A DNA stretch of 233 bases. It comes from Escherichia coli (GTDB lineage Bacteria; Pseudomonadota; Gammaproteobacteria; Enterobacterales; Enterobacteriaceae). The number at the start of each line of letters is the position of its first letter. Within the stretch, counting starts at the first letter, position 1. The stretch lies in the NCBI RefSeq assembly GCF_003334315.1, contig NZ_QOWR01000143.1. One strand, written 5' to 3'. The translations under genes and the position numbers were made by a program. The notes beneath the pieces are model-generated. The model searched no databases. It had not been told where the DNA came from and saw only the letters and a list, made by a program, of their open reading frames with translations. Shown here one piece after another: positions 1-233 of the stretch.

Positions 1-132
1 CCAACCTTCTGCACCAGAAATAACGGCACAAATAGTCAACAGTAGAATATCCGATAATTTATGTTCCACTTTCCAGGTTTGTCTGTAATCGGGGATAATA
101 GAAATATGTTCCATCAATTTTTTAAGTTCCAT
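1..132 (-). CDS. ISAs1-family (H-repeat-associated) DDE transposase, N-terminal 44 codons; 5' end complete, 3' end runs off the window at position 1
   Basis: Reverse-complement of 1-132 is an open frame starting at ATG (complement of 130-132) with no stop: [44 protein letters not shown]. The motif D-x-R-x(6)-H-x-L-x-D-I-L-x(3)-I-x-A-x-I-x-G-A-x-x-W is the signature of the DDE_Tnp_1-associated N-terminal domain of ISAs1-family transposases. From memory the peptide closely matches the start of E. coli H-repeat-associated proteins (YhhI-like); this was not verified by search. A strong RBS lies at the correct spacing. Confidence 0.88.
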
Positions 133-138
133 TTTGTT

Positions 139-144
139 CTCCTT
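139..144 (-). promoter_or_regulatory. Shine-Dalgarno sequence (AAGGAG) for the transposase
   Basis: Minus strand reads AAGGAG-AACAAA-ATG: a perfect core Shine-Dalgarno hexamer with a 6-nt spacer to the start codon. Confidence 0.75.
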
Positions 145-158
145 AATTAGGTAAGGAG
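139..158. repeat. Perfect 7-bp inverted repeat (CTCCTTA / TAAGGAG) with 6-nt spacer, overlapping the transposase RBS; potential stem-loop
   Basis: Plus 139-145 ctcctta and 152-158 taaggag are exact reverse complements, separated by attagg (146-151). On the minus-strand transcript this is CUCCUUA-CCUAAU-UAAGGAG, immediately followed by AACAAA-AUG. The stem has 3 G:C and 4 A:U pairs and cannot extend (positions 138/159 do not pair). Confidence 0.55.
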
Positions 159-233
159 TATTTGATCATGTATAAGCAATAAAAAACAGCTTCAGGTAAT
201 AAGGAATATCTCAATTTTTAAACATAAAATGCG

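Follow-up and report, generated by a model that had tools for sequence, protein, structure and literature searches.

Occlusion of the transposase ribosome-binding site (RBS) by RNA structure is a familiar brake on insertion sequences (ISs), and it has been worked out for a handful of them, namely IS10, IS50, IS200 and ISPpu9. Here it is newly proposed for the ISAs1 family, starting from a 233-nt stretch of Escherichia coli DNA (the window, at its full length) that covers the 5' end of yhhI, the transposase gene of the element ISEc1, and from a hairpin in it that encloses the Shine–Dalgarno (SD) sequence of this gene. For IS50 (Tn5), protection from transcription entering from outside was reportedly worked out by Krebs and Reznikoff in 1986 and by Schulz and Reznikoff in 1991, and the stem-loop in the 5' untranslated region (5'UTR) of IS200 tnpA is said to have been described by Beuzon and coworkers in 1999.

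Protection of IS10 (Tn10) from outside transcription goes back to Davis, Simons & Kleckner (1985, Cell 43:379), as cited in PMC2965389. For IS200, it has been verified experimentally that the stem-loop of the tnpA leader masks a near-consensus SD and inhibits the binding of 30S subunits (PMC4513863; Ellis, Trussler & Haniford, 2015), and a structure in the 5'UTR of ISPpu9 tnp occludes the RBS (PMC8450116). The searchable literature contains no report on the expression control of ISAs1-family elements (IS1358, ISAs1, H-rpt).

The best explanation of the evidence overall, to which a probability of roughly 0.7 is assigned, is a family-conserved, SD-occluding hairpin that damps transposase translation. 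In the transposase-sense RNA, a 7-bp stem with a 6-nt loop would pair the SD of yhhI with an anti-SD sequence lying 6 nt upstream, and this pairing would hinder binding of the 30S ribosomal subunit and keep transposase translation low. Judged by sequence comparison and by folding models, SD occlusion that limits transposase translation is the most likely and best-supported function of the structure. In this way, a single hairpin becomes a family-wide signal that is supported by covariation.

The Shine–Dalgarno hairpin of ISEc1 and its counterparts in the ISAs1 family

At 100% identity, the window matches the 5' end of E. coli K-12 yhhI, which is annotated in RefSeq as 'ISAs1-like element ISEc1 family transposase'; ISEc1 is the "H-repeat", an ISAs1-family element. 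The hairpin is a perfect 7-bp inverted repeat at window positions 139-145 and 152-158 with a 6-nt spacer, reads CTCCTTA-CCTAAT-TAAGGAG on the minus strand (158-139) and corresponds to positions 119-138 of ISEc1. Its 5' arm, the anti-SD CTCCTTA (152-158), is defined by the inverted repeat and by pair probabilities and is homologous to columns 9-17 of the two family alignments described below, which covary with the 3' arm; the loop CCTAAT (146-151) follows from the inverted-repeat scan and from the comparison of copies; and the 3' arm TAAGGAG (139-145), delimited by the inverted repeat and by the cost of opening the SD, contains the SD AAGGAG at 144-139. A 6-nt spacer read directly from the sequence, AACAAA (133-138), lies between the SD and the start codon ATG of yhhI (130-132, from the K-12 annotation). 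All of these features are on the minus strand.

The energy of the stem is -6.9 kcal/mol alone and -8.0 kcal/mol with dangling ends, and folding of 101 nt as well as of 233 nt gives the hairpin in both the minimum free energy (MFE) and the centroid structure. When the modelled transcript begins ahead of the 5' arm by 0 to 402 nt, the stem pair probabilities are 0.89-1.00, and the predicted probability that the SD is unpaired is close to zero when the 5' arm is in the transcript; with the start moved into the 5' arm or the loop, the SD is about half unpaired. Opening the SD is calculated to cost 7-8.7 kcal/mol with the 5' arm versus 1.5-1.8 kcal/mol without it, a difference of 5.5-7 kcal/mol, and the predicted cost declines gradually with temperature, from 10.6 kcal/mol at 20 °C to 6.9 kcal/mol at 45 °C, with no sharp transition. 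The initial annotation had placed a perfect 7-bp hairpin at 139-158 with the SD in its 3' arm, had proposed that transcripts starting upstream of position 158, read-through from flanking genes among them, would fold with the SD paired and had called the stem short and only moderately stable; the inverted-repeat check gave the same coordinates and strand, the pair probabilities agree with the proposed folding, and the description of the stem is apt both in view of its energy and in view of an opening cost that lies within the range of neighbouring genes.

A perfect 7-bp stem with a loop of 3-8 nt is found somewhere in 13.6% of dinucleotide shuffles of the window, but over a fixed 6-nt site in only 0.2%, and an equally stable hairpin with its 3' arm ending at -16 to -2 was produced by none of 200 shuffles of the 60-nt leader. 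Since the folding energy of the whole window is unremarkable (z = -0.05 and -0.17), it is only a local, position-specific feature that stands out. A search of Rfam matched no curated family and returned only four chance matches to small nucleolar RNAs, at 10-15 bits versus gathering scores of 32-101.

For the comparison across the family, 80 loci with relatives of the transposase were gathered, with one genome per species, together with enterobacterial relatives and named family members from plasmids, and 64 unique leaders at 40-100% protein identity were scored. In 32 of the 64, the hairpin at this position beats 95% of the dinucleotide shuffles of the same leader, where about three such leaders would be expected; a hairpin of -6.9 kcal/mol or below at this position is found in 44% of the leaders, and among 696 natural 60-nt windows taken from these loci the share is 6%. 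In many lineages the cost of opening the SD lies above that calculated with shuffled upstream sequence. The 3' arm of the family hairpins ends 1-10 nt before the start codon and is the SD itself in most lineages, the loop ranges from 4 to 20 nt and the stem from 5 to 12 bp, and the sequences of the arms are lineage-specific. The 5' and 3' arms are TCTCCT and AGGAGA in Salmonella and Dickeya, ATCTCC and GGAGAT in a clade at 82% identity, TCCATT and AATGGA in Serratia and Raoultella, ATCTCCT and AGGAGAT in Enterobacter, ACCTCCA and TGGAGGT in Vibrio, ACTGGCT and AGCCAGT in Alishewanella, ACTTCC and GGAAGT in Parashewanella, GGTCATC and GATGACC in the Halomonas group, CTCCTGTGTA and TACACAGGAG in a planctomycete, and GTCTCC and GGAGGC in ISAs1 itself.

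Out of sample, the hairpin was carried, when scored, by four of six further members (ISAs1, ISAeme2, ISKpn31 and ISPa60); an Aeromonas caviae element has a stem of the ISKpn31 type, seen by eye, with a second candidate start, whereas the scored run, which used the first candidate, gave only -3.4 kcal/mol. The 12-bp stem of ISPa60 (GGGCATCCTGAG...CTCAGGATGCCC; L099:205-261), at -22 kcal/mol and ending 4 nt before the ATG, is far stronger than that of other members, which in the folding model implies near-complete occlusion unless the transcript starts inside the stem.

The arms change together. In alignment A3, the 5' half of which is anchored on a sequence-conserved TGATC block, with the 3' half mirrored and the loop padded, compensatory changes on both sides are seen in eight of nine pairs, and the 39 double-change cells compare with 11.0 +/- 3.9 in shuffles; covariation scores 0.537 versus 0.213 in shuffles (0 of 500 reach it), slid registers score at most 0.17, and on Infernal's own alignment the score is 0.524 versus 0.206, the pairing counts being inflated in that the alignments are fitted to the hairpin of each sequence or to the model. 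A search of both strands of 258 kb with a covariance model built from A3 gave 41 hits with E <= 1, of which 39 lie directly 5' of a transposase ATG, and the hits include loci outside the seed and a second IS copy. With plain MAFFT and RNAalifold on 29 leaders no pairs were predicted, because the variable loop lengths throw the 3' arms out of register.

Taken together, these comparisons show computationally that the SD hairpin is maintained by selection throughout the ISAs1 family and that the inverted repeat in the window is the ISEc1 version of it. Fold-back occlusion of the transposase RBS, as proposed in the initial annotation, is thereby supported by family conservation and compensatory changes as well as by folding, and the comparison with other ISAs1-family copies that it had called for came out positive, with the repeat at the same position, in lineage-specific arms.

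Three further observations concern individual leaders and hits. One leader at 67% identity (L094:60-95) has the reversed layout: the 5' arm is formed by AAGGA, the SD, and the complementary CCTT follows before the ATG (AAGG-acat-CCTT-aa-ATG). In leaders of the Halomonas group (L010:60-102, L009, L014, L017, L052), the 5' arm GGTCATCTA sits at the position of the TGATC block, and a further small hairpin lies within the loop of 13-14 nt, so that the structure has two tiers and an energy of -12 to -17 kcal/mol. The single off-target hit of the covariance model, in K-12 (L002:13176-13218, E = 0.16), downstream of phr near dtpD, is probably due to chance.

Promoter-like sequences and predicted transcript starts

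The 5' arm of the hairpin adjoins a conserved block that resembles a promoter. Directly 5' of the stem, gammaproteobacterial elements carry a conserved TT(G/T)AC(C/G)-N20-(T/A/G)ATACT; the ISEc1 counterpart of the second hexamer, the putative -10 box AATACT (window 157-162, minus strand), abuts and overlaps the 5' arm, its proposed role being based on conservation. Columns 8, 9 and 12 of A3, which match A-11 and T-7 of a -10 element, show little or no variation. A Dam site, GATC (164-167, both strands), within the palindrome TGATCA (163-168), precedes the 5' arm by 5 nt and is near-invariant beside this arm in gammaproteobacterial relatives. A second GATC is found in the conserved tip CAGGGnAAGATC (L001:2958-2972), and the right tip of ISEc1 has GATT.

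The sigma-70 weight matrix used to predict transcript starts was an approximate one; it allowed spacers of 15-20 bp, and the +1 was fixed at 7 nt downstream of the -10 box. The +1 of the best site lay in the stretch that begins with the 5' arm and ends where the 3' arm begins in 18 of 26 lineage representatives, compared with 5.8 +/- 2.0 in shuffles (0 of 200 reach 18), and for sites of at least 6 bits the predicted +1 is in this hairpin zone in 15 of 18, versus a null fraction of 0.21. The layout with the +1 in the hairpin spans unrelated clades, being predicted for ISAs1 (TTGAAC-17-TCTAAT), ISPa60, an Anaerolineales element and a Dehalococcoidia element. When the alignment is anchored on TGATC, the 5' arm never extends past column 18, i.e. 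it stops before the predicted +1.

The layout that we infer as usual for the family thus runs from a -10-like box through the anti-SD arm and the predicted +1 to the SD, with the anti-SD arm placed between the -10 box of a weak promoter belonging to the element and its +1. An mRNA started by the element itself would lack the anti-SD arm and be translatable, and an RNA entering from outside would carry the arm and be blocked. The position of the modelled +1 downstream of the anti-SD arm in most relatives lends indirect support to, and suggests, the analogy with IS10 and IS50.

Several points weigh against SD occlusion, and against this layout in particular, besides the inflated pairing counts mentioned above. 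About one third of the family leaders are without the hairpin, including those of cyanobacterial members, L032, L039, L049 and ISKpn9. No sense-strand asymmetry emerged (G.U versus A.C 15 versus 13, Wilcoxon p = 0.30, and likewise sense versus antisense MFE). The strength of the stem is ordinary: opening the SD of yhhI costs 7.1 kcal/mol, a value of at least 7 is reached by four of 18 neighbouring E. coli genes, and their median is 4.7 kcal/mol. Stability by itself would not make a case for the hairpin, and an SD as strong as AAGGAG may compete well against a 7-bp stem. A canonical sigma-70 scan of the ISEc1, L040 and L018 leaders returned no promoter on the sense strand, so that the promoter assignment depends solely on the approximate weight matrix; the spacer of the conserved TTGAC/TATACT pair is 20 bp, which is non-canonical; and the best predicted promoter of ISEc1 reaches only 4.5 bits and lies upstream of the stem, outside the hairpin zone. 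The searchable literature yielded neither a demonstration of ISEc1 activity nor transcription start, probing, toeprint or reporter data for members of the ISAs1 family.

The last three sequence observations, i.e. the blank canonical scan, the 20-bp spacer and the weak upstream hit in ISEc1, would also suit a constitutive damper of the IS200 kind, in which transcription of the native mRNA begins upstream of the 5' arm, so that all transcripts contain the hairpin and basal translation is low. A precedent exists in IS200, where transcription starts at about nt 40 and an SD-sequestering stem occupies nt 69-138, as verified by 30S binding and mutations (PMC4513863), and in eight of the 26 lineages the predicted +1 lies outside the hairpin. 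However, the predicted +1 is in the 5' arm or the loop in the other 18, unrelated clades among them, far above chance; the 5' arm stops by column 18 of the TGATC-anchored alignment, ahead of the predicted +1; and the most conserved bases beside the arm are those matching A-11 and T-7 of a -10 element. Constitutive damping, the main alternative, is held to be possible, though distinctly the less probable account, and as to the form of the block we lean, without much conviction, towards one that is selective for read-through RNA, in the style of IS10 and IS50, over a constitutive one.

The missing strand preference bears on two further readings, in which the palindrome would not act on the transposase mRNA. 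Because it folds on both strands, the stem could belong to an antisense RNA that runs from inside the open reading frame (ORF) towards the left end, like RNA-OUT or art200, and uses the palindrome as a stem or terminator. A promoter-like site on the plus strand of the window (70-99, TTTCCA-18-GATAAT) could, together with the hairpin, give an RNA of about 60 nt, the hairpin reads as terminator-like on this strand (139-158; 0.0 terminators in shuffles), and six lineages share +16 to +19 (sense) as the place of their best-scoring antisense promoter. Yet the number of promoter-like sites is at the chance level (one found versus 1.1 in shuffles), and the recurrence is accounted for by coding constraint, since the recurring hexamers overlap conserved H-(I/F) and R-Q codons at which the synonymous sites are free (15 CAT and 13 CAC; 20 CAA and eight CAG). 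As a terminator, the hairpin is weak, with three G-C pairs and -6.9 kcal/mol, and the tail in relatives averages 3.4 T in 10 nt, with no U-tract. Such an antisense RNA is therefore considered improbable. A Rho-independent terminator as such was also considered and was rejected: the stem is followed by AACAAAAUGG in the sense direction and in the antisense direction by UAUUUGAUCA, which barely passes the scan, the stem has only the three G-C pairs, and the tails of relatives are not U-rich.

In the other reading, the DNA palindrome is an operator for a dimeric protein, either the DNA-binding domain of the transposase or a host factor, that would sit between promoter and start codon and act on transcription. 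The palindrome is perfect, adjoins the promoter-like block and showed no strand asymmetry, and lineage-specific arms could in principle coevolve with a lineage-specific protein. It is, however, the complementarity alone that is conserved, and a loop varying from 4 to 20 nt and a stem varying from 5 to 12 bp fit RNA folding and not a fixed footprint; the 3' arm is mostly the SD and always ends 1-10 nt before the ATG; and G.U pairs occur within otherwise perfect stems (ybfD, L030, L074, L010, L017). An operator is regarded as very improbable, and SD occlusion in the RNA is retained as the preferred account of the palindrome.

As regards other regulators, the RpoS peaks found near yhhI and ydcC by genomic systematic evolution of ligands by exponential enrichment (PMC5493296) map upstream of the IS tips, at distances of about 330 bp and 1.5 kb, and have no bearing on the leader.

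The element and its copies in Escherichia coli

ISEc1 is an ISAs1-family insertion sequence by its transposase domains, size, terminal repeats and copy number. The ORF of yhhI runs past the window, in which codons 2-44 of the ISAs1-family DDE transposase occupy positions 1-129 of the minus strand, as assigned from the identity with yhhI and from the Pfam domains of homologues; PF13808 (DDE_Tnp_1_assoc) and PF01609 (DDE_Tnp_1) are present in homologues of 66-98% identity. The limits of homology between the K-12 copies yhhI, ydcC, ybfL, ybfQ and ybfD give a length of 1,291 bp (L001:2958-4248). The left tip, CAGGGAAAGATC, lies 43 nt past window position 233 and 144 nt upstream of the ATG, so that the whole window is internal to ISEc1 and positions 159-233 (minus strand) are internal leader, as judged from the homology limits between copies and from the comparison of tips. 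The terminal inverted repeats are formed by CAGGGAAAGATCATC at the left tip, which matches the reverse-complemented right tip CAGGGCAAGATTACG, and the tip CAGGGnAAGATC also occurs in the copies of Vibrio and Alishewanella. In E. coli, the element was found at 24,316 places in 5,334 of 5,426 genomes, with a median of five per genome.

Two observations concern the coding region. The 9-mer TATGTTCCA occurs three times in the window, on the plus strand at 60-68, 105-113 and 123-131 (one copy at 89% identity), corresponding in the sense of the gene to (A/G)TGGAAC(A/T)T at codons 1-3, 7-9 and 22-24 (M-E-L, M-E-H and V-E-H), and may be fortuitous or reflect a small repeat at the protein level. The ORF of E. 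albertii (L004) is open only from the second ATG.

The leader of ISEc1 and its enterobacterial relatives is 144-150 nt long (L001:2958-3101), versus 72-100 nt in compact relatives (L040:1105-1200, L050, L035), and the TTGAC box of the compact relatives is absent from it, with no credible internal promoter predicted there. Among the K-12 copies, the intact yhhI and ydcC have a perfect stem, and in ybfD the pairing is kept through a change of C to T, which gives a G.U pair; no stem is left in the decayed ybfL and ybfQ, where the SD is mutated to AAGGTG and the spacer has a 1-nt deletion. This pattern, in which the stem is kept in intact copies and lost in decayed ones, fits selection as far as can be read from the sequences.

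The state of the copies also bears on whether the hairpin could be a relic, inherited from an active ancestor, in elements that are now inactive or domesticated in E. coli and for which the stem is irrelevant. The lack in ISEc1 of the relatives' TTGAC box or of any credible promoter, the decay of several K-12 copies and the ordinary strength of the stem are all consistent with this. Against it, intact yhhI and ydcC keep the perfect stem that the pseudogene copies have lost, and E. fergusonii (81% protein identity) has an identical stem while those of Salmonella, Dickeya and Serratia have been remodelled, which points to continuing constraint in the enterobacterial clade. A relic is thus judged unlikely, and a hairpin that still serves to damp translation is preferred.

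The loop differs between copies: it is CATAAT in most copies other than that of the window (ydcC, ybfD and E. fergusonii; L003:7796-7801, L002:10072-10077), and CCTAAT in the yhhI copy of the window. CATAAT is itself a -10-like hexamer, with TA(C/T)ACA 17 nt upstream (4.3-4.8 bits), from which the predicted start would fall inside the SD.

All of the H-repeat copies of K-12 are co-oriented and lie downstream of an rhs gene and its small ORFs (L001:1-2961, L002:1584-10854, L003:3891-8953); therefore, read-through into the element is expected. Because of this arrangement, and because ISEc1 has no recognisable promoter, its transcripts are probably read-through RNAs, all of which would carry the hairpin. 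If translation is indeed damped in this way, this would account for the tolerance of these elements downstream of active operons, and an intact or broken stem would provide a simple sequence criterion for copies that are still able to express transposase. The family is encountered in practice as the H-repeats associated with the rhs loci of E. coli, as ISKpn31 and its kin on resistance plasmids, and as ISAs1 inactivating virulence genes of Aeromonas salmonicida.

A more elaborate possibility is a conditional gate, in which warming or stress would weaken the stem and hemimethylation of the adjacent GATC would open the embedded promoter, so that transposase would be made in bursts. ISAS1 actively inserts into vapA and abcA in A. 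salmonicida, and A-layer loss in the strains concerned has been linked to culture at high temperature (PMC3661141). Such a gate is thought doubtful, with a likelihood similar to that of a relic; if real, it would explain the ISAS1 insertions in A. salmonicida without an A-layer and would tie the activity of the H-repeats to the upstream rhs toxin operons.

Comparison with described systems

The class of mechanism is familiar, and the present finding is accordingly a useful addition for specialists, not a surprise. As in IS10 and IS50, an inverted repeat is present, the downstream arm of which covers the translation-initiation region. There, transcription from the element's own +1 begins past the upstream arm, leaving only RNAs started outside to fold back and to be translated poorly, and for ISAs1-family relatives the start is predicted within the 5' arm or the loop. 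IS10 and IS50 also have a Dam GATC at the promoter and at one end, and relatives in the ISAs1 family have GATC beside the -10-like box and in the tip. The systems differ in that the transposase belongs here to the ISAs1 family and not to that of IS4 or IS50, in that ISEc1 is without a recognisable promoter and the +1 in its relatives is a predicted one, and in that the structure in ISEc1 is a simple local hairpin of 7 bp, in contrast to a longer-range fold-back. In addition, an antisense RNA of the RNA-OUT type, present in IS10, finds no support in ISAs1-family elements.

Short hairpins that pair the SD, with energies of about -7 to -10 kcal/mol, are also characteristic of RNA thermometers of the fourU and ROSE types. 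The SD hairpin of ISEc1 has a similar energy, and the cost of opening it becomes lower with warming. However, its stem is perfectly paired, with neither destabilising mismatches nor a fourU motif, and any SD hairpin weakens with temperature.

ISPpu9 resembles ISEc1 in that the secondary structure of the leader would occlude the RBS, but its structured UTR of about 245 nt is opened by the antisense small RNA (sRNA) Asr9, which is countered by a second sRNA, and nothing comparable was seen in ISEc1. The likeness to IS200 is that both are small, tightly repressed elements with weak or undefined promoters and a stem-loop at the SD in the leader. IS200 is, however, an HUH/Y1 element in which a long stem (nt 69-138) is part of the native mRNA, and which has a terminator at the left end, the antisense RNA art200 and Hfq, whereas in the ISAs1 family the stem is 5-12 bp long and abuts a -10-like box, and a terminator and an antisense RNA are unsupported. 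By analogy, the hairpin of ISEc1 probably acts like the leader hairpin of IS200 and, probably, like the structures of IS10 and IS50, in an element that lies outside those families.

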